In this document: positions 2,419 to 32,047 of the stretch, in pieces
How positions within the stretch are numbered: the stretch's first letter is position 1
Layout of the letters: each line of letters opens with the position of its first letter
Assembly: GCA_964550425.1 (NCBI GenBank)
Contig: CAZJZB010000001.1
Location: forward strand, 3,509 to 67,508
Length of the DNA: 64,000 bases
Source: an uncultured Candidatus Saccharibacteria bacterium
Lineage (GTDB): Bacteria > Patescibacteriota > Minisyncoccia > Phycocordibacterales > Phycocordibacteraceae
Direction of reading: 5' to 3'
Program-made: the position numbers and the translations under genes
Notes under the pieces: generated by a model
The model's database searches: none
The model's input: the letters and a program-made list of their open reading frames with translations, nothing else
What the model was told of the DNA's origin: nothing

Positions 2419-2554
2419 ATCGCTTACTATACATTAACTCACTCAAGAGAAATGTTTTTGAGAGCGTTTCGCTCAAACCTGCCGCACCTGAAGGTGCGGC
2501 AGGATGTCGCTGCACTTGGCATACTCTCAAAGACATTTCTCCGCTCGCTCATAG

Positions 2555-4285
2555 TTACACAACTCTGATATCGAGAAGCCGCAGACGAACCGGATTCCCG
2601 CGCGAGAACGTATCACGCTCAAGATGCGCAAGCACGTTCACGCGACTACTCGCCGCGAGTTTCTGTACCGTGCGTGCGAGAGAACCTTTTACAAAAAAAG
2701 TAACCGCATCAATACTCGCCCCCCGCCCATCAATCGAGCCCATCTTCAATTTCAAATGCTCCTCTCCTTTTCCGAAGCGTGAAATCTCTCGCACGAAAAC
2801 CTCTCGCAATAGAAACACGGGTTTGTCATTATGCATGCCGAATGGTGCGAGCTTCTCAATCTTGGTAAGGAATGCGCTCGTCGCTTCTTCCGGAAGTACG
2901 TGAGCATCGGCGCGCATCGCGAGCTCATCAACGATGGTCGCTCCACCCAGTATTTTTTCGTGTGCTTCGACAAGCCGGTCTTCGAGAAAAAATACCTCGG
3001 TATCTTGCACGGTGAAACCGCCTGCGCCCGCATGCCCGCCGAATTCAACAAATACTTTTTCCGCGGCCCGCATGAGTTCCAATATGTGTGTCGCTCCGCC
3101 GCTCCGTACCGATCCTTTGAGACGCATATTTCCCTCTCTTCCCCACAGGAATACCGGCCGTTCATATTCCTCCGCAATGGTATTTGCGACGAGACCAAGA
3201 AGGGAAGGCCGCCATTCCGGATCCCCGAGCGCGATGATGGTTCGTACCGCTCCTCTCTCTTTCAGGCGCGTATGCACCGCGCGCGTGATGGCGCCCGCCT
3301 CGGCTTTCCGTTGCCGATTCGCTTTTTCCATTTTTTTGGAAAGCGCATCGGCCTCGCTTTCATCGGCAGTCGTGAAGAGACGGAATGCGTCGCGCGCATC
3401 GCCCATACGGCTTGCGGCATTCACGCGAGGCGCAATCATAAAACCGACATCATCTTCGGTAAGCGCACGCTGCTCCACGCGCATTCCGCGACACAGTTTT
3501 TGCAGCCCAAGTCGCGGCGATTTGCGCATAACGAGGAGTCCATAGGTAGCAAGTACGCGATTCTCATCTACAAGCGGAACCATGTCAGCGATGGTTGCGA
3601 GCCCCACCATATCAAGAAGCCATTTCTCCCATCCAACAGGTACTTTCTCGCGGAGTACCGGCGCTATCGCGAGTGTCGCGCACACGAGTTTCCATGCGAC
3701 TCCCGAACCGCAGAGCCCGCGGAAAGGGTATGTCTCATCTGCGCGTGCATTTGGATTGAGGACTGCAAATGCGTCCGGCAGCATTTCGCCCGGAAGATGA
3801 TGGTCGGTAACAATGACATCCATGCCGAGCCCCCTTGCCCGAGCGACGGATTCAATGTCAGTGATACCGGAGTCCACAGTCACGACGAGTTTCACTCCGC
3901 TCTCTGCAAGCTTCTCGATACCGTTCACATTCATACCGTAGCCCTCTTCGTGCCGATGCGGAATATAATTCTCAAAATTCGCGCCCACCTTTTGGAGAAA
4001 ATCGTGCATCAGTACGCCGCCGGGAATACCGTCGCAATCATAGTCGCTCCAGACGGCAATTCTTTCTCCTGAAAGAATTGCCGCCCCGAGCCGCTCCGCG
4101 GCAAGCGGCATGTCGCACATGAGGAAGGGATCATGCAGATGCGAGTCGTATGAGGGATTAAGAAATTTCTCCGCGGCATCTTTCGTCAGAATGCCGCGCC
4201 GCGCGAGCAGCGCGGCAGTGAGATCGTCATAGGCGATAAGTTCCGCACGCAATGTCTCATCGAGTGGATCATGGAGCGGGAACAT
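2555..4285 (-). CDS. recJ: single-stranded-DNA-specific exonuclease RecJ
   Basis: DHH motif (DVIVTDHHLP) and DHHA1 region; length 576 aa. The 413-aa + strand ORF 2831..4072 is an antisense shadow. Confidence 0.85.
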   Translation of the reverse strand: MFPLHDPLDETLRAELIAYDDLTAALLARRGILTKDAAEKFLNPSYDSHLHDPFLMCDMPLAAERLGAAILSGERIAVWSDYDCDGIPGGVLMHDFLQKVGANFENYIPHRHEEGYGMNVNGIEKLAESGVKLVVTVDSGITDIESVARARGLGMDVIVTDHHLPGEMLPDAFAVLNPNARADETYPFRGLCGSGVAWKLVCATLAIAPVLREKVPVGWEKWLLDMVGLATIADMVPLVDENRVLATYGLLVMRKSPRLGLQKLCRGMRVEQRALTEDDVGFMIAPRVNAASRMGDARDAFRLFTTADESEADALSKKMEKANRQRKAEAGAITRAVHTRLKERGAVRTIIALGDPEWRPSLLGLVANTIAEEYERPVFLWGREGNMRLKGSVRSGGATHILELMRAAEKVFVEFGGHAGAGGFTVQDTEVFFLEDRLVEAHEKILGGATIVDELAMRADAHVLPEEATSAFLTKIEKLAPFGMHNDKPVFLLREVFVREISRFGKGEEHLKLKMGSIDGRGASIDAVTFFVKGSLARTVQKLAASSRVNVLAHLERDTFSRGNPVRLRLLDIRVV

Positions 4286-4309
4286 GTGGCACTATTGTAT
4301 ACTTACTCA

Positions 4310-4642
4310 ATGGAAAGTTGTATTTTTTGCAAGATTGCCATTGGCGAGATTCCCTCGCGCAAGGTACATCATGAAGACAAAATCGTCGTTTCTTTCCTTG
4401 ATATGAATCAAGATATACCGGGTCATACGCTCGTCATTCCCGTTGAGCACCACTCCTGGTTTTATGAGTTGCCTGATGACATTGCAAACAAATTATTCAG
4501 GGCGGCACGGCACGTAGCGCAAGAATTAAAAGAAAAAATGAAAGCTGATTATATCCAACTTTCGATTATCGGCACCGATATTCCGCACGTACACCTACAT
4601 CTACTCCCGCGTTTTTTAAAAGACAAGCCGCCCAAAATCTAA
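4310..4642 (+). CDS. HIT-family (histidine triad) hydrolase
   Basis: CIFCKI N-terminus and HVHLHLLPR histidine triad. Start moved to the internal ATG to avoid overlap with recJ. Confidence 0.8.
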   Translation: MESCIFCKIAIGEIPSRKVHHEDKIVVSFLDMNQDIPGHTLVIPVEHHSWFYELPDDIANKLFRAARHVAQELKEKMKADYIQLSIIGTDIPHVHLHLLPRFLKDKPPKI

Positions 4643-4675
4643 AACGCCGGCCCTATATAGGTACCGGCGTTTACT
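4643..4675. terminator. bidirectional hairpin between the convergent HIT and membrane-protein genes
   Basis: AAACGCCGG-N13-CCGGCGTTT with a flanking A/T run. Confidence 0.5.
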
Positions 4676-4686
4676 CGCTCGCGTCA

Positions 4687-5148
4687 TCAGCCAGCGCCTT
4701 CTTTTGTGCGCAAAGCGCCGACAATATCGATGATGAGATCCCTGACGACCATCATCACCGGTATGAGTCCGAGGACGAGCAAGAAACTAAAGCTCGTCAT
4801 CCAGAATGCAGCGCCGTCCTGGATCTTTGTCGGAGCGGAAATCGCTCCGAAAACGAATCCAAAACAGATTGCGTTGAGCGTCATGAAGAATACATTTCCG
4901 CCTTCATTGAGGCGTTTGCCATTCAACATGTGCTCGATGAACTGGACAAAAATTACCACTCCAATGAAGAGCGCAATGAGAAACACTCCCAACAAAAGGA
5001 TTGACCCCTTGCCCCCGGACACGCCCCGCGCGAGCGCCGCCCATGGGTTGTATGTCACAGATATCTCGTTCGCACCCCATACGGCGCTTAGCGAGATCAA
5101 AATACCTGCAGGAATCATGATCATCCTATTTCCGATGCTCATCTGCAC
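4687..5148 (-). CDS. hypothetical polytopic membrane protein
   Basis: Four predicted hydrophobic helices; no known motif. Confidence 0.5.
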   Translation of the reverse strand: MQMSIGNRMIMIPAGILISLSAVWGANEISVTYNPWAALARGVSGGKGSILLLGVFLIALFIGVVIFVQFIEHMLNGKRLNEGGNVFFMTLNAICFGFVFGAISAPTKIQDGAAFWMTSFSFLLVLGLIPVMMVVRDLIIDIVGALRTKEGAG

Positions 5149-5210
5149 ACCTCCATTTTGATTTTCAATCAGATTTATTACTGAGCAACCTCTATGTTAA
5201 AGTATAGCAC

Positions 5211-6371
5211 TCAAGTGCCATTCTTGTCAAGTGCGTCAATGCCGGGGAGGGTACCCGTGGCAAGGAAATCAAGCATCGCGCCGCCGCCGGTGGAGACGAA
5301 AGAAAAGCGTGGCAAGAGACCGAGTCCTTCAATTGAGGCAACCGTGTCGCCGCCGCCCACTACTGAATATGCGTTTGAAGAGGCAATGGCACGCGCAAAA
5401 GCATCGGTCGCATTGATAAATCCATTTTCGTAATTTCCCAAGGGGCCGTTCCAGAGGATGGTCTTCGCTTTCTGTGCGAGGTTCGACAGGAGCGCAACGG
5501 TGCCTGGACCATGATCAAGAATAATTTCATCAGATCGTACCTGCCCGGCTGGAGCGATACGCGCCTCTAATTGCACATTCGTAGTTCCCAATAATCTTGC
5601 GGGTATCACCAGCGAGTCCATCGGCAATACCAGTTTCGGATGAGCGAGGAGTTTCTTGATTGTGTTTTCGCTGGCGCTCGAAACAAGCGATTTTCCCACC
5701 CCCAATCCTAATGCTTTAAGAAAATCGTTTGCAAGCGCTCCGCCAACAAACACATGATCATATGTTTTTAATAATGTCGTAAGCACCGCCTCTTTGGTAC
5801 TGAATTTCGCTCCACCAATGACCGCGAGCGCGGGATGTTGTGGTGCGAGTGCCCGTGACAGCTCCTTCATTTCTTCCTCAAGAAGAATTCCGGCATACGA
5901 GGGGAGAAGTTTTGGGACACCGATGATGGAGGCATGCGGCCGATGACAGGTGTCAAAAGAATCCTGCACGAAAATGTCGGCGAGAGAAGCGAGTTCTTGT
6001 GCGAAAGCGCGGTCATTCATCCGCTCGCCGTTGTCGCGCCGCAGATTCTCCAGGACAAGCACGCTGCCGGGTGCAAAGTCGCGGATCGCGGCGCGCGCTC
6101 CCTTTCCTATGGTCTCGGGGAAGAACGAAACATTTGGGAGAAGTTTTCCAAGCGCTTGAGCAACCGGTGCGAGGGTCTCGGTCCCCTGTTCACCCAAGTG
6201 GCTTATGAGCACGACCCTCGCGCTACGTTCGGTAAGGAAACGTATAGTTGGTAGCGCGCGCCGCAGGCGATAGTCGTTTACAACCTTCCCATTTATAACA
6301 GGAACATTGAGCGCCGCCCGCACCAGTATCGGAATATTCTCAAATAGTTGTATGTCGCGAACGCTTTTCAT
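5211..6371 (-). CDS. pgk: phosphoglycerate kinase
   Basis: VLENLRRDNGE, ISHLG, GGGDT, STGGGA motifs; 386 aa. Confidence 0.9.
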   Translation of the reverse strand: MKSVRDIQLFENIPILVRAALNVPVINGKVVNDYRLRRALPTIRFLTERSARVVLISHLGEQGTETLAPVAQALGKLLPNVSFFPETIGKGARAAIRDFAPGSVLVLENLRRDNGERMNDRAFAQELASLADIFVQDSFDTCHRPHASIIGVPKLLPSYAGILLEEEMKELSRALAPQHPALAVIGGAKFSTKEAVLTTLLKTYDHVFVGGALANDFLKALGLGVGKSLVSSASENTIKKLLAHPKLVLPMDSLVIPARLLGTTNVQLEARIAPAGQVRSDEIILDHGPGTVALLSNLAQKAKTILWNGPLGNYENGFINATDAFARAIASSNAYSVVGGGDTVASIEGLGLLPRFSFVSTGGGAMLDFLATGTLPGIDALDKNGT

Positions 6372-24328: not shown

Positions 24329-24460
24329 GGCCTTTAGAAATATGGCTCATTCGTTGAGTATACTCTAGGACCACTCTTAGAAATAGTTATTAGACGCATG
24401 TCCTTTATCCCCAGTATCCCCAATGTTATCCACTTACGACACGGAACCAAAAGACACACA

Positions 24461-24486
24461 AAAATGGCTCAATCGAGCCATTTTTG
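24461..24486 (-). terminator. hairpin terminator downstream of tRNA-Gly(GCC) and its trailer
   Basis: AAAATGGCTC-aatc-GAGCCATTTT, followed by a T-run on the minus strand. Confidence 0.5.
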
Positions 24487-24639
24487 CGTTTAAGAAACTT
24501 TAAGTCAAATCTATCTTTCGGTGCGGGGGAGAACCGTGATTACACTTTCGGCCACGGATAATTTTCTCGCCGCCGCTCGAAAATTTCCTCGGCCCCGCCT
24601 CGCGGTTTTGCCTGTTGGCAAAACATCGCTCCGGCATTC

Positions 24640-24657
24640 GATTCTCCCTACTCGTCC
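24640..24657 (+). repeat. 18-nt inverted copy of the tRNA-Gly(GCC) 3' end (T-loop to acceptor)
   Basis: TTCGATTCTCCCTACTCG is identical to tRNA positions on the opposite strand, 20 nt beyond the tRNA 3' end. Confidence 0.7.
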
Positions 24658-24676
24658 CATCCTCGCTATGCTCGTC

Positions 24677-24750
24677 TGGTGCGAGTAGGGAGAATCGAAC
24701 TCCCATCATCTGATTGGCAACCAGATGTTCTACCATTGAACCATACCCGC
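24677..24750 (-). tRNA. tRNA-Gly (anticodon GCC); CCA encoded
   Basis: Acceptor GCGGGTA/TACTCGC, D-arm GTTC/GAAC, anticodon loop TTGCCAA, T-arm GGGAG-TTCGATT-CTCCC, then ACCA. Confidence 0.8.
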
Positions 24751-24970
24751 GCTAGGCGACATGATACCATGTCGCCAGTTTTTATTTCCAGTGCAGTATT
24801 CTTGAATTAGTCCGAACGCATTTCGCCGCCTGCGGCGGTAAAGAAGTCCCCCCGCGAAAATTCGGAAAGGCGGCGGGCCGCGCCGCTGATTCAGCAGAAT
24901 CACCTACTGGGTGACAATTTCAAGTTTTTCTTTGGCGGCATTCAATTATGAATTTACAAAATAAATACAA

Positions 24971-25853
24971 CTACGCCTTAGGAGTTTCAATATTTCCTCC
25001 CTCAATCGGGTTTACTTCCGGCTTTATTTCACCTGGCGGAATTTCACCCTCCGGAACTTCTAACTTTTCCTCTGGCTTAGGTTCTTCGGGCTTCTCCTCT
25101 TCCAGCTTCTGTTTTTCTTCTTCCAATTTTTTGTCCACGCGCTCGGTTGCTTCTTTGGTTAAGTCCTCATCAAATTTTTTCAAAAGGTCTGGTAATGCTT
25201 CAAGAATTTTTGGCAGTAGTTTAATTCCTTCTTTGAAAGCTTTCGCCAAAGATTGCGCCATTTCCGGATTGAGAGAACCCATTGACTTGCTTTCAACATT
25301 TCGTCCCTCAGGAGTTTTCCCGCTCTTAAAAATGCTTTCAAAGTCACGGGGATTAAGTCCCTCAAATTCCTTGAACACTTCGTCAAGTTTTTCTTGTAGA
25401 ATTTTTTCTTTTTCTTCGCGGATAAGCCGTTCTTTTTCCTGTTGGCTGATAAGTTCCTCTTTTTGTTTTTCTAATCCTTCTTGTTCGGCTTTGAGTTTTT
25501 CCAATTTATCTTTTTCTGAAAACACACTTGGCGGGTCTTCTTCTGTTGGCGGAAGTCCAAGTTTTTCTCTCGCGGCGTTTAGGGCAGATTTTGTTCCTTC
25601 AACAGATTCTGATAAACGAGTTATTTCTTCTTGCTTGGCCTTGGCTTCGCCCTCTAAATTTTTAAGCTGTTCTTCCGGCGATAATTCAGGTTCTTCTGCT
25701 ACTTGTTCTTGCCCTTCTTCTGCTTTTAATTTTTCCAATTCTTCCGGTGTAAGTTCGCCCTCCAGTTTTTTCCCAGCATTAACATCAGCACCAACCTCGT
25801 TGGGATTTAGTTCTGCATTATTCGTATTTGGAGCACCTTCAAATTTTGGCATA
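24971..25853 (-). CDS. Glu/Lys-rich coiled-coil protein (hypothetical)
   Basis: EK-rich heptads. The Ser-rich + strand ORF 24948..26213 is its codon-complement shadow. Start chosen at MPKFEG. Confidence 0.45.
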
Positions 25854-25986
25854 GTTTTTGTTGAATGTATTAAAAAATTTTCTTCCCCCAAAATTAAAAT
25901 ATGGTTCGAGCCGATGTTTTTCTCCGGGTTCTTTTGCGGTTTTGAGCGGTATTGTTCGCACTTCCATTTTAGCATAATTCCTTTCT

Positions 25987-26003
25987 GGTGCGCCCGCCAG
26001 GAC
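25987..26003. repeat. direct partial copy of the tRNA-Arg 3' end, including a CCA
   Basis: TGGTGCGCCCGCCAGGA compared with the tRNA 3' end TGTGCGCCCGCCAGGA at 26141..26156; ~135 bp apart. Confidence 0.55.
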
Positions 26004-26142
26004 CGCGATTACGCTTATCGAAACTTACAGTTTCAGTACACCTTGCGGATTTTCTGTTCGCTTCGCTTCATAAAATGCTCGCAAGGTCTTCGATTCCTGT
26101 TCGCACGCCTCCCAGGCGTGCTTCGGGGCACATTCTCGCTTT

Positions 26143-26215
26143 GCTCGTATGTGCGCCCGCCAGGAATCGAACCCGGAACCTCTTCGTCCGAAGCGAAGCG
26201 CTCTATCCGTTGAGC
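26143..26215 (-). tRNA. tRNA-Arg (anticodon TCG); CCA not encoded
   Basis: Acceptor GCGCCCG/CGGGCGC, D-arm GCTC/GAGC, anticodon stem CTTCG/CGAAG with loop CTTCGGA, T-arm CCGGG-TTCGATT-CCTGG. Confidence 0.75.
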
Positions 26216-26231
26216 TACGGGCGCGTAGCGA

Positions 26232-26261
26232 GGATGAGAGAATGTGAGTACTCCAACATTC
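26232..26261. promoter_or_regulatory. 10-bp-stem inverted repeat between the divergent tRNA-Arg and cca
   Basis: GAGAGAATGT-N10-ACATTCTCTC. Confidence 0.35.
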
Positions 26262-26313
26262 TCTCGCCCCGAGCGCACAACCCCATACTACGACACTGTG
26301 CTACGATTCGGAA

Positions 26314-27777
26314 ATGCACTATCGTATTCCGAATGAAGTTGCAAAGGTGGGTGATGGCCTGCGCGGCGCTGGATTTGAGTCATATCTTGTCGGCGGATGC
26401 GTTCGCGACCTTGTTATCGGGCGAGAACCCAAGGATTGGGACATTACCACTAATGCAACACCGGAGCAGATTCAGGCCGTATTTCCCGACTCTTTTTACG
26501 AAAATGATTACGGCACAGTCGGAGTGAAGACGGGCTCAGATGATTCTCGCCTTTCCATCATTGAGGTAACTCCCTATCGCACCGAATCCGCCTATTCCGA
26601 TAAGCGCCGGCCGGACAAAGTAGAATTCGGCACTTCCCTTCCAGAAGACCTCGCGCGCCGCGACTTCACCATAAATGCCATTGCACTAGACGATTCTAAA
26701 GGACACATAATTGATCCCTACGAAGGTCAAAAGGACATAAAGGACAAAATGGTACGAGCAGTCGGTAACGCCTCCGAGCGACTCAATGAAGACGCTCTAC
26801 GCATGCTGCGTGCGGTCCGTTTAGTCGCTGAGCTTGAATTCGGTATAGAAAGTAATACCGCAGCCGCCATAAGCGAAAATAGCAAGCATTTAAGACATGT
26901 TTCACGTGAAAGGATTCGTGATGAGTTCATTAGGATATTGAATTCAAGCCAGCCGATGAATGCTCTTGTTCTCGCACAGCAACTTGGCATCCTGGAATTC
27001 ATTGTCCCTGACATTATTCGCGGCATTGGCGTTGAGCAGAACCAGGCCCATTCATATGACGTTTTCGGACATAATCTCCGGACTATGCAGCATGCGGCTG
27101 ACAAAGAGTGGGGATTTGATATCCGTCTTGCTGGTCTCTATCACGACATTTCAAAACCGGAGACCCGTCGTTGGTCTGAAGAGAAAAAGGACTGGACATT
27201 CCATGGTCATGAAGTTGTTGGTTCACGTGTAACAAAGAAAGCCCTTGAAGATCTACATTTTTCACGCGAAACAATAGATAAAGTCGTTAAATTAGTACGA
27301 TGGCACATGTTTTTCTCTGATCCAGAGCAAATTACACTCTCCGCTGTGCGCCGCATGATAAAGAACGTTGGCGAAGAAAATATATGGGACTTACTCAATC
27401 TCCGTATCTGCGACCGTGTCGGGACTGGTCGGCCAAAGGAACAGCCATTTCGGTTCCGCAAGTATAAAGCGATGGTTGACCAAGCGCTTCGCGATCCAAT
27501 ATCTGTATCTATGCTTAAGACAGACGGTAGGCATATTATGGATAAGTTTCATATGAAACCAGGACCTAAAATAGGATGGACACTCAATGCTCTTCTTGAG
27601 GAAATACTTGATGATTCTGATAAAAATACAGAGGAATATCTCGATAAAAGGACAGAAAACCTACTTAAAATGCCTGAAGATGAGCTAAAGAAGCTCGGAG
27701 AGGCGGGGAAGTTGCGTCGTGAAGCAGCTGAAGATGAGGAAATAAAGCATATAATGGAGAAATATCACGTCTGTTAG
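26314..27777 (+). CDS. cca: CCA-adding tRNA nucleotidyltransferase with HD domain
   Basis: GGCVRD, RRDFTINA polymerase-beta-like head; HD (HDISK); 487 aa. Confidence 0.85.
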   Translation: MHYRIPNEVAKVGDGLRGAGFESYLVGGCVRDLVIGREPKDWDITTNATPEQIQAVFPDSFYENDYGTVGVKTGSDDSRLSIIEVTPYRTESAYSDKRRPDKVEFGTSLPEDLARRDFTINAIALDDSKGHIIDPYEGQKDIKDKMVRAVGNASERLNEDALRMLRAVRLVAELEFGIESNTAAAISENSKHLRHVSRERIRDEFIRILNSSQPMNALVLAQQLGILEFIVPDIIRGIGVEQNQAHSYDVFGHNLRTMQHAADKEWGFDIRLAGLYHDISKPETRRWSEEKKDWTFHGHEVVGSRVTKKALEDLHFSRETIDKVVKLVRWHMFFSDPEQITLSAVRRMIKNVGEENIWDLLNLRICDRVGTGRPKEQPFRFRKYKAMVDQALRDPISVSMLKTDGRHIMDKFHMKPGPKIGWTLNALLEEILDDSDKNTEEYLDKRTENLLKMPEDELKKLGEAGKLRREAAEDEEIKHIMEKYHVC

Positions 27778-29564: not shown

Positions 29565-29632
29565 GCATCCATTCTATATCATCAATCGCTTCGCCGTCAG
29601 ACCAAAAATAATTAATTAAGAGGGAAAGTACC

Positions 29633-29673
29633 TATCCACTAAATACTGCTATAACAGGAATATAGTGGATACT
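29633..29673. repeat. nested-palindrome dispersed repeat, copy 1
   Basis: TATCCACTAAATACTGCTATAACAGGAATATAGTGGATA. Confidence 0.7.
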
Positions 29674-29707
29674 AGGCAGTGAAGAACATCCTTCTAGGAT
29701 TATGTAG

Positions 29708-30949
29708 ATGATATACTCAAAGCCGATGGACTTTTTGACAAACCAAAGAGGGTTTATTCAGATACCGCTTCTTATTGTAATCACTATAGGTTTTTTGATT
29801 TTAAGTGGTGAGGGATATGTAAGGTTTGAACAATACCAAGACCGTAAAGACAACGACGGCCTCTTCGTCAGTGAGGAATTCACGAAGAATCTTAACACTG
29901 AGTTTGCGACCGAGAATAATCAAAGCACCAGCACCCCAAAACTTTCGGAGGTTGAAAAGTTAAAAAATGAAGTGGCTGAGTTGAAATCAAAAAAAGAAGT
30001 AAATACAAAAACAAGCGAAGAACCCATCAAGAAAGCCTATGAAAAGCCCATTCTATCAAAGAAAGAGAAAACAGAAATAAATAAAGAAAAAATTATACAA
30101 ACGCCTCCCCCACAGAAGCCGGAACTATATTTGGGGAAAGACCAATTCATTTTTATACCAGTGAATTGGAATCGGGCCAAAGGGGACTTTGATATTTCTG
30201 TCAGCGCAGCAATGAAAGAATTTAAAAAGCAATATCTTGAGCTCCAGAAGCGCGCATTTCCCTTGCTGGATAGTGACGAGGCGTACTTCAATAGCAGATT
30301 TGAGGCAATCAACCTTACTAATTGCATAGATATCTGCCGTCTAGAAAGGTTGCCAACAAGCGGTTTTGATTTAGAAAACTTATGTTCAAACCAATGCCTT
30401 GATAAGAAACGACTCTATGACCCCTATCCAACCTTTATTGGTATAAGCAACGATGAAAAATTTTTTGGCAAAAACTTTCAAGAATACCTCACTATTTTAG
30501 TAGATCTGCGTAACTTGAGAAATGTATCGACCGTTGTACATGAAATCGGACATCTTTTTTGGTCTCTCTGTGACGAGTATAAGTATAGTTTGTGGCAGCA
30601 ACAAGATAAGTACTGGCCCGAATTTAAAGGAGTCAAAGGATGTCCTAATCCTTATCCGCTTACTTGTGCTGACCACCCGCAATGGATTAATAACGAAGAG
30701 AACTACCTTACATACGTGCACGGGCTTGGTCTCACCTGGGGAGGGTACAAACAGACCACTACTGACGAAAAAATTGAAAAAGAAACAGGTATCGCCTTCT
30801 GTCCTGGCGCAGTATGTACTCCGCAAGCAGGATACGATCAATGCAGAAGCACGATGGGACCCACTTTTACTCCGGACGATATACTATATTTTTTTGGAGG
30901 AAAACTAGAGACCAGAATTCCCATCGAGGCAATACTACCCCCTTGGTAA
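29708..30949 (+). CDS. secreted/membrane-anchored HExxH protein (putative zinc metalloprotease); AT-rich gene
   Basis: N-terminal TM helix, Lys/Glu-rich linker, Cys-rich C-terminal domain with HEIGHLF. Confidence 0.45.
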   Translation: MIYSKPMDFLTNQRGFIQIPLLIVITIGFLILSGEGYVRFEQYQDRKDNDGLFVSEEFTKNLNTEFATENNQSTSTPKLSEVEKLKNEVAELKSKKEVNTKTSEEPIKKAYEKPILSKKEKTEINKEKIIQTPPPQKPELYLGKDQFIFIPVNWNRAKGDFDISVSAAMKEFKKQYLELQKRAFPLLDSDEAYFNSRFEAINLTNCIDICRLERLPTSGFDLENLCSNQCLDKKRLYDPYPTFIGISNDEKFFGKNFQEYLTILVDLRNLRNVSTVVHEIGHLFWSLCDEYKYSLWQQQDKYWPEFKGVKGCPNPYPLTCADHPQWINNEENYLTYVHGLGLTWGGYKQTTTDEKIEKETGIAFCPGAVCTPQAGYDQCRSTMGPTFTPDDILYFFGGKLETRIPIEAILPPW

Positions 30950-30986
30950 CTGGGCAGTTTACTTTTCCGGAGGGTATCTCAGACGT

Positions 30987-31015
30987 AACCTGTAGACACC
31001 CAGTGTCTACAGGTT
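30987..31015. terminator. perfect 13-bp-arm palindrome between the convergent HExxH gene and xer gene
   Basis: AACCTGTAGACAC-cca-GTGTCTACAGGTT. Confidence 0.5.
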
Positions 31016-31066
31016 TGTATACCTTAAATAAAGGGGGTTCTGATCGGTATCTTATTTTCAATCGGC

Positions 31067-32047
31067 TCAGTTGCGGCCTTTCCCGTGATATTTTTTGTGA
31101 ATTTCGCGGAGGTGGGAGTCGGTAATATGCGTATAAATTTGGGTCGTATTGATGGAAGCGTGGCCAAGGAGCTGTTGAACTGAGCGGATATCGGCGCCGT
31201 TACTGAGCAAATCAGTGGCAAATGCGTGGCGGAGCGTGTGTGGTGTGACGACATTTGTGATGCCGGCACGCGCGACGTACGACTTCAGGTGCCGTTGGAT
31301 ATCGCGCGGAATGATGCGATGCAATTTGTTCGGCCGGCCGTCGACAAAGAGCGCTTCCTCCATATCTTTTCTCGCTTTGAGATAGTCACGCACGGCCTCT
31401 TTGGCAGAAGGGGAGAGGAAAACGACACGGACTTTCTCACCTTTGCCGCGCACCGATAATTCATCGCGTGTTAAATCGATATCGGCGTTTAGTGCGCAGA
31501 GTTCGGACACGCGCAGGCCGGTCGAGAAGAGGAGTTCTAAGATTGCGCGGTCTCGCAGATACTGGATTTTCTTGTTCTCGTCGGTTTCTTTCGCCAATGC
31601 CTCCCCGGGCGCTCGCATGAGCCGCTCCAGTTCGGCGGAAGTAATGAGATCAAGTTGGCGCTCGGGAAGTTTCGCTAACTCTATCTTTTCCGGAGAAATG
31701 GCGACAATGTCGCGCTTGCGAAGGAACTTGAGAAATGCGCGCAGAGCGATCATGTAGTAATTCTGGGTCCGGCGCTTCATGGAATCGGCAGCCGTACCCG
31801 GCTGCCGATTGAGCCAAAGGCGGAATTCGCGGATATTTTGCTCGGTGATATCGCCGACGTCTTTTATCTCCATCTGTGCGAAGTAGCGGGTGAGATAATG
31901 GTCATAATTCTCGACGGTCTTCACTGCGCGCCCGCGCTCTATCTCTATATATTCCAGAAATTGCCGTTTCGCTGTTTCAACCCCCATTGATGAGTAGTAT
32001 AGCGCGATATTTGCATATTTCTGCAAGACGTGGTAAGGTAGAAACAT
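31067..32047 (-). CDS. tyrosine recombinase XerC/XerD family
   Basis: R...HTLRHAFATDLL...LLGHASINTTQIYTHI catalytic motifs (R-H-R-Y). Confidence 0.85.
   Translation of the reverse strand: MFLPYHVLQKYANIALYYSSMGVETAKRQFLEYIEIERGRAVKTVENYDHYLTRYFAQMEIKDVGDITEQNIREFRLWLNRQPGTAADSMKRRTQNYYMIALRAFLKFLRKRDIVAISPEKIELAKLPERQLDLITSAELERLMRAPGEALAKETDENKKIQYLRDRAILELLFSTGLRVSELCALNADIDLTRDELSVRGKGEKVRVVFLSPSAKEAVRDYLKARKDMEEALFVDGRPNKLHRIIPRDIQRHLKSYVARAGITNVVTPHTLRHAFATDLLSNGADIRSVQQLLGHASINTTQIYTHITDSHLREIHKKYHGKGRN

Follow-up and report, generated by a model that had tools for sequence, protein, structure and literature searches.

A short structured element at tRNA 3' ends in Patescibacteria, possibly a non-autonomous mobile element

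Introduction

What is the short stretch of DNA that separates a tRNA-Arg(TCG) gene from a second copy of the 3' end of the same gene? The question arose from a stretch of 64,000 nucleotides, here called the window, in which such a repeat was noticed. tRNA genes are classic landing sites of mobile DNA, and the agents known to use them are, to our knowledge, kilobase-scale elements with integrases of their own. Patescibacteria have tiny genomes that are usually thought to be poor in repetitive DNA. The original prediction read the repeat as the attachment signature of a tyrosine-integrase element that had been excised or had decayed. We find that the interval between the repeats holds one complete copy of a structured element of ~150 nt, not the debris of a lost island, and that this element belongs to a family found behind many tRNA genes.

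The tRNA-Arg(TCG) gene and the repeat of its 3' end

ARAGORN and Rfam agree on a tRNA-Arg(TCG) gene on the minus strand (26151/26152..26224, 68.5 bits with Rfam).

26152..26224, minus strand: tRNA-Arg(TCG), complete gene, CCA not encoded, of 'type B' (GCGCCCGTAGCTCAACGG...), found by ARAGORN and Rfam

The gene is followed by CATACG (...GCGCA-C-ATACG), which bears out the earlier statement that CCA is not encoded. The proposed alignment of the repeat region against itself recovered an exact direct repeat (15/15 nt), GTGCGCCCGCCAGGA on the plus strand, at 25988-26002 and 26151-26165. The repeat corresponds to tRNA positions 60-74, i.e. to the last 15 nt rather than the last 14 nt as first described, and the spacer measures 148 bp (start-to-start 163), not 135 bp. 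Read on the tRNA strand, the distal copy is TCCTGGCGGGCGCAC followed by CA, and thus ends in ...ACCA. The 17-mer that includes the CCA complement, TGGTGCGCCCGCCAGGA on the plus strand, is real, but it lies at 25986..26002, one base to the left of the place it had been given (25987..26003). When up to two mismatches were allowed, the 15-mer had just two sites in the 64 kb (0.18 expected) and no third copy was seen; two matches were reached in only one of 100 shuffles. The chance origin of the 15-nt repeat is negligible.

The spacer had also been said to contain a degraded T-arm-like stretch. This stretch, GGTCTTCGATTCCTG, is present at 26086..26100 (plus strand). It shows no degradation and corresponds to the T loop and the 3' T-stem strand copied in inverted orientation, with complementarity at 11 out of 11 positions.

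A second functional tRNA gene at the distal repeat had been raised as a point against the attachment scar. Strictly speaking there is none: neither ARAGORN nor Rfam predicts a tRNA at 25986..26150 (the window has four tRNAs in total), and both programs rule out a second tRNA or a tmRNA at the distal repeat. The distal repeat is still one strand of a helix that resembles the acceptor and T stems of a tRNA. Two further candidates were rejected. An intron in the T loop, with the distal copy as the true 3' exon, is incompatible with the fact that the proximal copy always completes the tRNA, and the distal copy is truncated or lost in several loci (L096, L100, L127). The anticodon stem and the spacer match over 11 nt by coincidence, as relatives keep the spacer while their anticodon stem differs.

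Anatomy of the element

The element has the order S – loop – antisense(S) – core – S, with S standing for positions 54-74 of the preceding tRNA. The features of the window copy, in the direction of the tRNA, are as follows.

26151..26171, minus strand: P, proximal S (tRNA positions 54-74), with the exact 15-nt repeat at 26151..26165
26132..26150, minus strand: loop ATACGAGCAAAGCGAGAAT, with the recurrent motif GAGC-NNN-GCGAG
26123..26131, minus strand: A1, antisense of the 3' acceptor strand with N73 and C74 (GTGCCCCGA)
26103..26121, minus strand: H1, hairpin GCACGCC-UGGGA-GGCGUGC, GGG of the loop conserved
26089..26100, minus strand: A2, antisense of the 3' T-stem strand and the T loop (ACAGGAATCGAA)
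26040..26087, minus strand: H2, the most conserved domain, ACCUUGCG...AUUUU...GA-GC-GAA-GC-GAA...AAAAU...CGCAAGGU
26019..26035, minus strand: H3, hairpin U-GAAAC-UGUAA-GUUUC-G, 6/7 pairs covary, closing U-G conserved
26003..26016, minus strand: H4, mini-hairpin AAGCG-UAAU-CGCGG, optional, absent in L014, L020 and L025
25986..26002, minus strand: D, distal S (positions 60-74, TCCTGGCGGGCGCAC), extended by CA to a full CCA

P consists of the T loop, the 3' T-stem strand, the 3' acceptor strand, A73 and C74. The ends of the loop prolong the helix between P and the antisense segment A (CACAT/ATGTG), and other copies of the element have a terminator-like GC hairpin in place of the loop. In the window H1, a GC hairpin, stands between the two antisense segments A1 and A2; the letters of its stem vary among the copies and the pairing is retained (6/6 pairs covary). 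CAGGAATCGAA (26099..26089) complements the T loop and the 3' T-stem strand of tRNA-Arg, and the second loop base of A2 follows position 59 in the T loop of the host tRNA in all aligned copies (21 out of 21). D pairs with both A1 and A2.

No ORF fits inside the 148-bp segment. Directly after D comes GAAAGGA, the ribosome-binding site of an ORF on the minus strand (24971..25975) that starts directly past the distal repeat. This is an AT-rich orphan of 334 aa, rich in Glu and Lys, with no Pfam domain and no homologue in 206 related loci, i.e. it is window-specific cargo of the variable gap between tRNA-Arg and tRNA-Gly. A 421-aa ORF on the plus strand (24948..26213) crosses the element and the tRNA in antisense and is an annotation artefact; its 13 'homologues' in other loci appear because the conserved element gets translated.

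Empty and filled sites in related genomes

The gene of the CCA-adding enzyme (26314..27777) was used as bait and retrieved 80 loci (66-89% identity) of Kaiserbacteria, Paceibacteria and other Patescibacteria; exact look-ups of the proteins of the flanking genes gave no record. Their conserved order is tRNA-Gly(TCC)..tRNA-Pro(TGG)..tRNA-Gly(GCC) – gap – tRNA-Arg(TCG) – cca. In about 24 relatives the gap between tRNA-Arg(TCG) and tRNA-Gly(GCC) is 19-56 nt long; empty sites have a gap of 38-41 nt. In three filled sites (L025, L020 and L206) the gap is 195-224 nt, which is ~155-185 nt extra, and the entire difference from an empty site is made up by the element and the repeat. In L025 and L020 the native trailer TAGAAA follows the distal repeat without a gap; in L206 the two are separated by a CAC triplet.

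The spacer sequence of the window is found directly behind tRNA-Arg in eight loci (L001, L002, L004, L014, L020, L025, L060 and L206). A distal repeat of the local tRNA is present in 6 out of the 8; L060 ends at a contig edge and L002 is without the 3' half. The repeats of the six orthologous copies are 14, 15, 15, 18, 20 and ~23 nt long and always cover tRNA positions 54/60-74. The differing loops and the H3 and H4 variants imply at least three independent insertions at the tRNA-Arg site.

These sites bear on the attachment scar. According to that explanation the repeats are attL and attR of a tyrosine-integrase island that was excised or decayed to 148 bp, possibly with the service of a Xer recombinase. 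In keeping with it, the repeated part of the tRNA begins in the T loop, a classic sublocation for tRNA-targeting integrases; the tRNA-Arg/tRNA-Gly gap is a hot spot that varies from 19 nt to 4.2 kb and contains unrelated cargo in relatives; and a protein with a Phage_integrase domain is encoded at 31067..32047. The comparison of empty and filled sites confirms that the repeat marks DNA inserted at a tRNA 3' end. The notion of an excised or decayed island did not hold, because the enclosed segment is the same conserved and structured sequence of ~130-190 nt in every repeat-bearing genome (127-163 nt in the relatives with the repeat at tRNA-Arg), and it is seen behind 12 or more tRNA species. 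Nor do relatives have a larger island bounded by such repeats; the window lacks a third copy of the repeat, and the recombinase keeps its place in 58 relatives regardless of the element. We consider the island scar largely refuted and improbable.

The larger gaps, up to 4.2 kb in some relatives, have cargo of their own. The gap of L077 contains a serine-recombinase-like ORF, judged from its sequence only. Relatives with or without the element repeatedly have a LAGLIDADG-like ORF (MRKDKE...NPLFIAGLMLYWGEGDK) in the tRNA-Arg/tRNA-Gly gap (L004 3643..4323, L041 434..1147, L050 3924..4613, L079 2595..3278, and downstream of the element in L001 and L014); it may be a free-standing homing endonuclease that contributes to the hot spot.

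Distribution of the family

Many metagenomic copies were found with a pattern derived from the conserved core, and nhmmer gave 49 matches. From 21 copies a covariance model was built, and it gave 61 matches in 1.8 Mb of loci; the matches come from genomes of Kaiserbacteria and Paceibacteria and from metagenomes. Samples with matches include the groundwater metagenomes Hain-H41/H51 (Hainich) and Ga0172379/80. A tRNA gene on the same strand lies upstream of 47 out of the 61, either directly or via a tandem copy, at a distance of 13-43 nt or, in tandem arrays, of one to two element lengths. None of the 61 follows a tRNA gene of the opposite strand. The rest are mostly at contig edges or behind tRNA-like 3' ends without an ARAGORN call.

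Twelve host tRNAs were counted: Arg(TCG, CCG, GCG, TCT), Glu(CTC, TTC), Gly(GCC, TCC, CCC), Ser(TGA, GCT) and Tyr(GTA). The search with a diverged Gly-type subfamily adds Pro(TGG). In the copies examined, both segments, antisense and distal sense, have the sequence of the local tRNA, and the agreement extends to T-loop position 59 (21/21, alignment A1). The core of ~100 nt is unrelated to tRNA and has more than 90% identity behind different tRNAs and in different organisms. The variants of the core assort as a mosaic, i.e. they follow neither the locus nor the tRNA type.

In tandem arrays (L151 1505-1900, L158 10315-9920) the S of the next copy is the D of the previous one. Five copies behind four tRNAs are found within 13 kb of L020. 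We note that in the stretch 2496..5848 of this locus (chromosome OY969413.1) Gly-TCC, Pro-TGG, Gly-GCC and Arg-TCG each carry at least one family member, and in some genomes most tRNAs may be decorated. There are also decayed copies (L002, L096, L100, L127 and L154), in which D, A, the 3' half or the tRNA is missing.

The window itself contains a second member of the family.

24515..24676, minus strand: second, diverged family member behind tRNA-Gly(GCC) (24677..24750)

The loop of this member is GACGAGCATAGCGAGGATGG and its antisense copy, GACGAGTAGGGAGAATCGAA (24637..24656), is contiguous; an H2-like domain and H4 are present, and the distal copy, TTCTCCCCCGCAC (24521..24533), has decayed. 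Around it lie a promoter-like site (24790..24761) and a terminator (24489..24456). In relatives the Gly-type subfamily is found behind tRNA-Gly(GCC), tRNA-Gly(TCC) and tRNA-Pro(TGG).

The tRNA genes of these genomes have other small neighbours as well. A different small element is located at the 5' end of the tRNA-Arg gene (window 26225..26279, minus strand; L004 5806..5886, L015 5883..5963, L074 5849..5931). Its order is a copy of tRNA nt 1-8, a loop, the antisense of the copy, a hairpin core and the real tRNA, i.e. the grammar S – loop – antisense(S) – core – S once more. The window leader at 26225..26279 (hairpin GAGAGAATGT/ACATTCTCTC) resembles a diverged member of this 5' group and contains TCGGGGC, the 3' acceptor strand of a type-A tRNA (the types are described below). 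Another conserved intergenic element that adjoins tRNA genes, ..CGCGACGGC.CGAG.CTGG.GTCGCG.AAATTTCTAGCAAGAAATTAT.TGTGACCAC.., was seen at ~5760..5890 in L009, at ~5765..5880 in L037 and upstream of tRNA-Glu in L104; the core of this CGCGACGGC-type element is unrelated to that of the tRNA-3'-end family.

Secondary structure and covariation

The 242-nt RNA that comprises the tRNA and the spacer folds far better than its shuffled versions (z = -6.2). RNAalifold predicts two helices between the antisense segment and D, namely P1 (A1 with the acceptor part of D) and P2 (A2 with the T-stem part of D), as well as H1 with the loop YUGGGAR and a junction that bears H2, H3 (loop UGUAA) and the optional H4. 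In other words, A, which is usually split by H1, is predicted to form with D a helix of the same sequence as the acceptor/T-stem stack of the tRNA.

Covariation was evaluated on 53 pairs in 48 model-aligned copies. The positions were paired in 95.6% of the cells and compensatory changes occurred in 45 out of the 53 pairs; the covariation score was 0.527, compared with a shuffle mean of 0.141 (0.527 was reached by 0/500 shuffles) and with at most 0.089 in slid controls. The helices without tRNA ancestry covary too (H1 6/6, H2 13/17 and H3 6/7 pairs). The unpaired bases of the core are very highly conserved, the closing U-G pair of H3 alternates with C-G, and a tandem-GA hairpin motif occurs three times. 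The helices are nearly pure Watson-Crick: G-U (47 occurrences, ~2%) is barely more frequent than A-C (35), which is expected if pairing also matters on DNA, and the counts of 47 and 35 separate neither the transcribed strand nor RNA from DNA. The CA after D completes a CCA in ~11 out of 27 copies, and the gene copy P is without CCA.

Covariance models of Rfam 15 gave no match at E <= 1 for the window region and none at E <= 5 for eight other copies of the element, on either strand in both cases, so a known RNA family or small ribozyme was rejected on this basis. The literature searches returned no description of a comparable element. As far as Rfam and these searches show, the family is apparently undescribed.

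A sense – antisense – sense order is what a fold-back would produce, i.e. a duplication, an inverted copy and a second duplication made by template switching in replication at a hairpin-prone tRNA end, with no element as such. This explanation is contradicted by the ~100-nt non-tRNA core with its identity above 90% across tRNAs and organisms and by the covarying helices, and we consider it very improbable.

The main rival to a mobile element is a structured non-coding RNA that serves the host, and the two are compatible rather than mutually exclusive. Such an RNA would be co-transcribed with the tRNA and would present, together with H1-H4, a tRNA-like minihelix with A1:D as the acceptor and A2:D as the T stem. 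It might be released by RNase P and 3' processing and take part in tRNA maturation or quality control; it might also work as a switch of three segments, A pairing with either P or D, or as a decoy, directed at enzymes or toxins with affinity for acceptor and T arms. The strong covariation, the invariant unpaired bases, the alternating closing pair of H3, the three tandem-GA hairpin motifs and the fold of the 242-nt transcript argue in this direction, as do the strict same-strand placement behind tRNAs, the CCA completed after D and not after P, and the layout at tRNA-Gly(GCC), where a promoter-like site, the tRNA, the element and a terminator follow one another. On the other hand, the element is dispensable, as it is absent from the same site in close relatives and some copies have lost D, A or the tRNA. 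Many copies have a terminator-like hairpin between the tRNA and A1, G-U pairs are rare and not clearly commoner than A-C, and A1 pairs poorly with D in the window. The spread over 12 or more unrelated tRNA species would still need some mobility. We regard a host RNA as possible, though doubtful.

tRNA types in the window copy

At the conserved locus the tRNA-Arg(TCG) gene occurs in two very different types: the window has type B and its closest relatives (L001-L007) have type A. This sequence comparison suggests that the tRNA body was swapped precisely in place at the window locus. P and D of the window are both of type B. The antisense segment matches type A at 20 out of 21 positions and the window's own tRNA at 17 out of 21; A1 in particular fits the type-A tRNA and not its own. 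The loop of the window is orthologous to the loops of type-A genomes. Since P equals D and the antisense segment is of type A, the tRNA body and D would have been swapped and the antisense segment not. Other discordant copies of the element go both ways. Simple Campbell integration, duplication at a staggered cut and a distal copy carried by the element were considered and set aside; none of them gives P = D ≠ A without an added conversion. With an antisense segment that has ceased to match its own tRNA, the window copy is probably inactive.

Search for associated enzymes

A XerC/D-family recombinase gene had been noted 5 kb away. The protein of 31067..32047 does have Phage_integrase and SAM-like domains (Pfam). 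Its gene has syntenic orthologues (65-94% aa identity) in 58 relatives, including relatives without an element at the Arg site (L007, L026). The gene is a resident of the chromosome whose synteny is independent of the element, and we rejected it as the element's integrase. Next to it the window has a specific insertion of ~1.5 kb (29565..31066) between the exonuclease-family and Xer-family genes, which are adjacent in L005; the insertion contains an AT-rich ORF of 413 aa (29708..30949) with a weak Peptidase_M64 match and a perfect palindrome with 13-bp arms (30987..31015).

In the 1.8 Mb of loci no transposase, integrase or reverse transcriptase was found near the copies, the neighbours being housekeeping genes, and no autonomous partner with the same ends was found among these neighbours. 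A reverse transcriptase was detected neither by Pfam among the window neighbours nor by sequence inspection of recurrent neighbour ORF clusters. We found no ORF of the Y1 TnpA type near copies of the element, no recurrent neighbouring gene that travels with it, and no free, circular, plasmid or phage-borne copy. BLAST searches of phages and plasmids gave no match to the element. Two pattern scans of IMG/VR yielded candidates that were dismissed: none of the six matches of the first scan was recovered by the nhmmer family search, and the single match of the second falls in a coding region.

A proposed mode of mobility

We propose a non-autonomous mobile element with tRNA 3' ends as its homing sites, and put the probability of this reading at about one half. 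Starting from what is established, namely the anatomy and structure of the element, its family, its association with tRNAs, its polymorphic sites and its arrays, we infer mobility as their cause, as well as a role for the antisense copy and an enzyme acting in trans. The mobile unit would be loop – antisense(S) – core – S, and it would insert immediately 3' of the S in the tRNA gene. An insertion at this point would leave the tRNA intact and would recreate the target, so that a next copy could land behind D; the empty site would be restored precisely if P and D recombined. With its internal antisense copy a single strand, putatively DNA in replication or transfer, would fold into a duplex image of the target, which might be recognised by recombination machinery supplied in trans. 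The element is probably co-transcribed with the tRNA into RNA as well.

Several points speak against mobility. It gives no account of how antisense(S) and S are rewritten on a move to a tRNA whose acceptor stem differs. The P = D ≠ A of the window needs an extra conversion step in every model that we tried. The empty sites could have arisen solely by loss between P and D, and in the loci and databases searched neither an enzyme, an autonomous partner nor a free copy was found to accompany the family.

There is also a more specific and tentative version of the mobile element. The element could be a gene-less homing element that is programmed by base pairing, with a guide of 21 nt (the antisense segment) and a copy of the tRNA terminus as its own end, and with guide and end rewritten together upon retargeting. 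The rewriting may be templated by the tRNA or by its gene, and an RNA template is hinted at by the CCA that many distal copies bear. Together with the sister family at tRNA 5' ends, this would point to a general decoration of tRNA genes in Patescibacteria, and to a new class of mobile elements or of tRNA-linked RNAs.

A gene-less, structured element of ~150 nt thus appears to use tRNA sites in Patescibacteria, with a sense/antisense image of its target built in and re-specified for at least 12 tRNAs. If it is mobile, targeting would be defined by base pairing and without a cis-encoded enzyme, and the targeting of tRNA sites would be directly testable. If it is a host RNA, it would be a new class of tRNA-mimicking RNA, with a link to tRNA maturation in the candidate phyla radiation. 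In either case a family model of the Rfam type would stop the annotation of such copies as att scars, pseudo-tRNAs or spurious ORFs.

Comparison with known systems

Integrase islands and prophages at tRNA genes, including gene-less remnants that can be mobilised in cis, share with the element a 3'-end repeat that starts in the T loop and leaves the tRNA intact, a distal copy that abuts the native flank and arrays at the recreated site. In contrast to them, the element is ~150 nt long, has no integrase and has a conserved structured core with an internal antisense copy of the att sequence; moreover, the same core stands behind many tRNAs and the repeat is re-specified each time.

tRNA-like modules (the tmRNA domain, bacterial YrlA, viral 3' tRNA-like structures and mascRNA) share with the element an acceptor-like stem, made of a 5' and a 3' segment and stacked on a T-stem-like helix, sometimes with CCA. 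The stems of the element differ in that they copy the neighbouring tRNA exactly and thus vary among copies; an insert of ~100 nt with three hairpins takes the place of the T loop, and there is no Rfam match.

The element is similar to a MITE in being ~150 nt long, non-coding and multi-copy (61 model matches, up to five in the 13 kb of L020), with inverted repeats (A and D), a flanking direct repeat and empty/filled polymorphism. However, its 'terminal inverted repeats' and its 'target duplication' are one and the same sequence, which depends on the site: A and D follow the local tRNA instead of being constant in sequence, and the repeat has no fixed length (14-23 nt). As regards retrons, the element has inverted ends and AGC after the 5' arm, and no reverse transcriptase domain was found.

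Like the element, the ends of IS200/IS605 and their non-autonomous, palindrome-associated derivatives are short, gene-less and strand-specific, with perfect Watson-Crick hairpins; they insert 3' of a specific sequence, and an internal segment beside a hairpin complements the cleavage or target site. The hairpins H1, H3 and H4, the same-strand placement (47/47) and the complementarity of A to S are compatible with this; the pairing, a duplex of 21 nt, is not the known mode. Unlike the 4-5 nt of IS200/IS605, the complementarity is an ordinary duplex of 21 nt, the 3' end of the element is the target itself, its ends are not constant in sequence and no TnpA was found near the copies.

In integron attC and the attP of CTX phage, as in the element, an inverse core and a core pair into a duplex site with extrahelical branches, and arrays form by repeated insertion at a recreated site. 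The element has no R/L box consensus, IntI or cassette ORF, and there is no sign of the involvement of Xer or IntI; inspection of alignment A1 by eye showed no attC core sites (RYYYAAC/GTTRRRY) at the ends of the element, and no IntI-type gene was found nearby. In contrast to attC, it is the tRNA 3' end that is paired, and the equivalent of attI would be the tRNA gene itself. The putative recognition of a folded duplex resembles the pairing of guide and cleavage site in the ends of IS200/IS605, or the pairing of inverse core and core in a folded attC or CTX attP.
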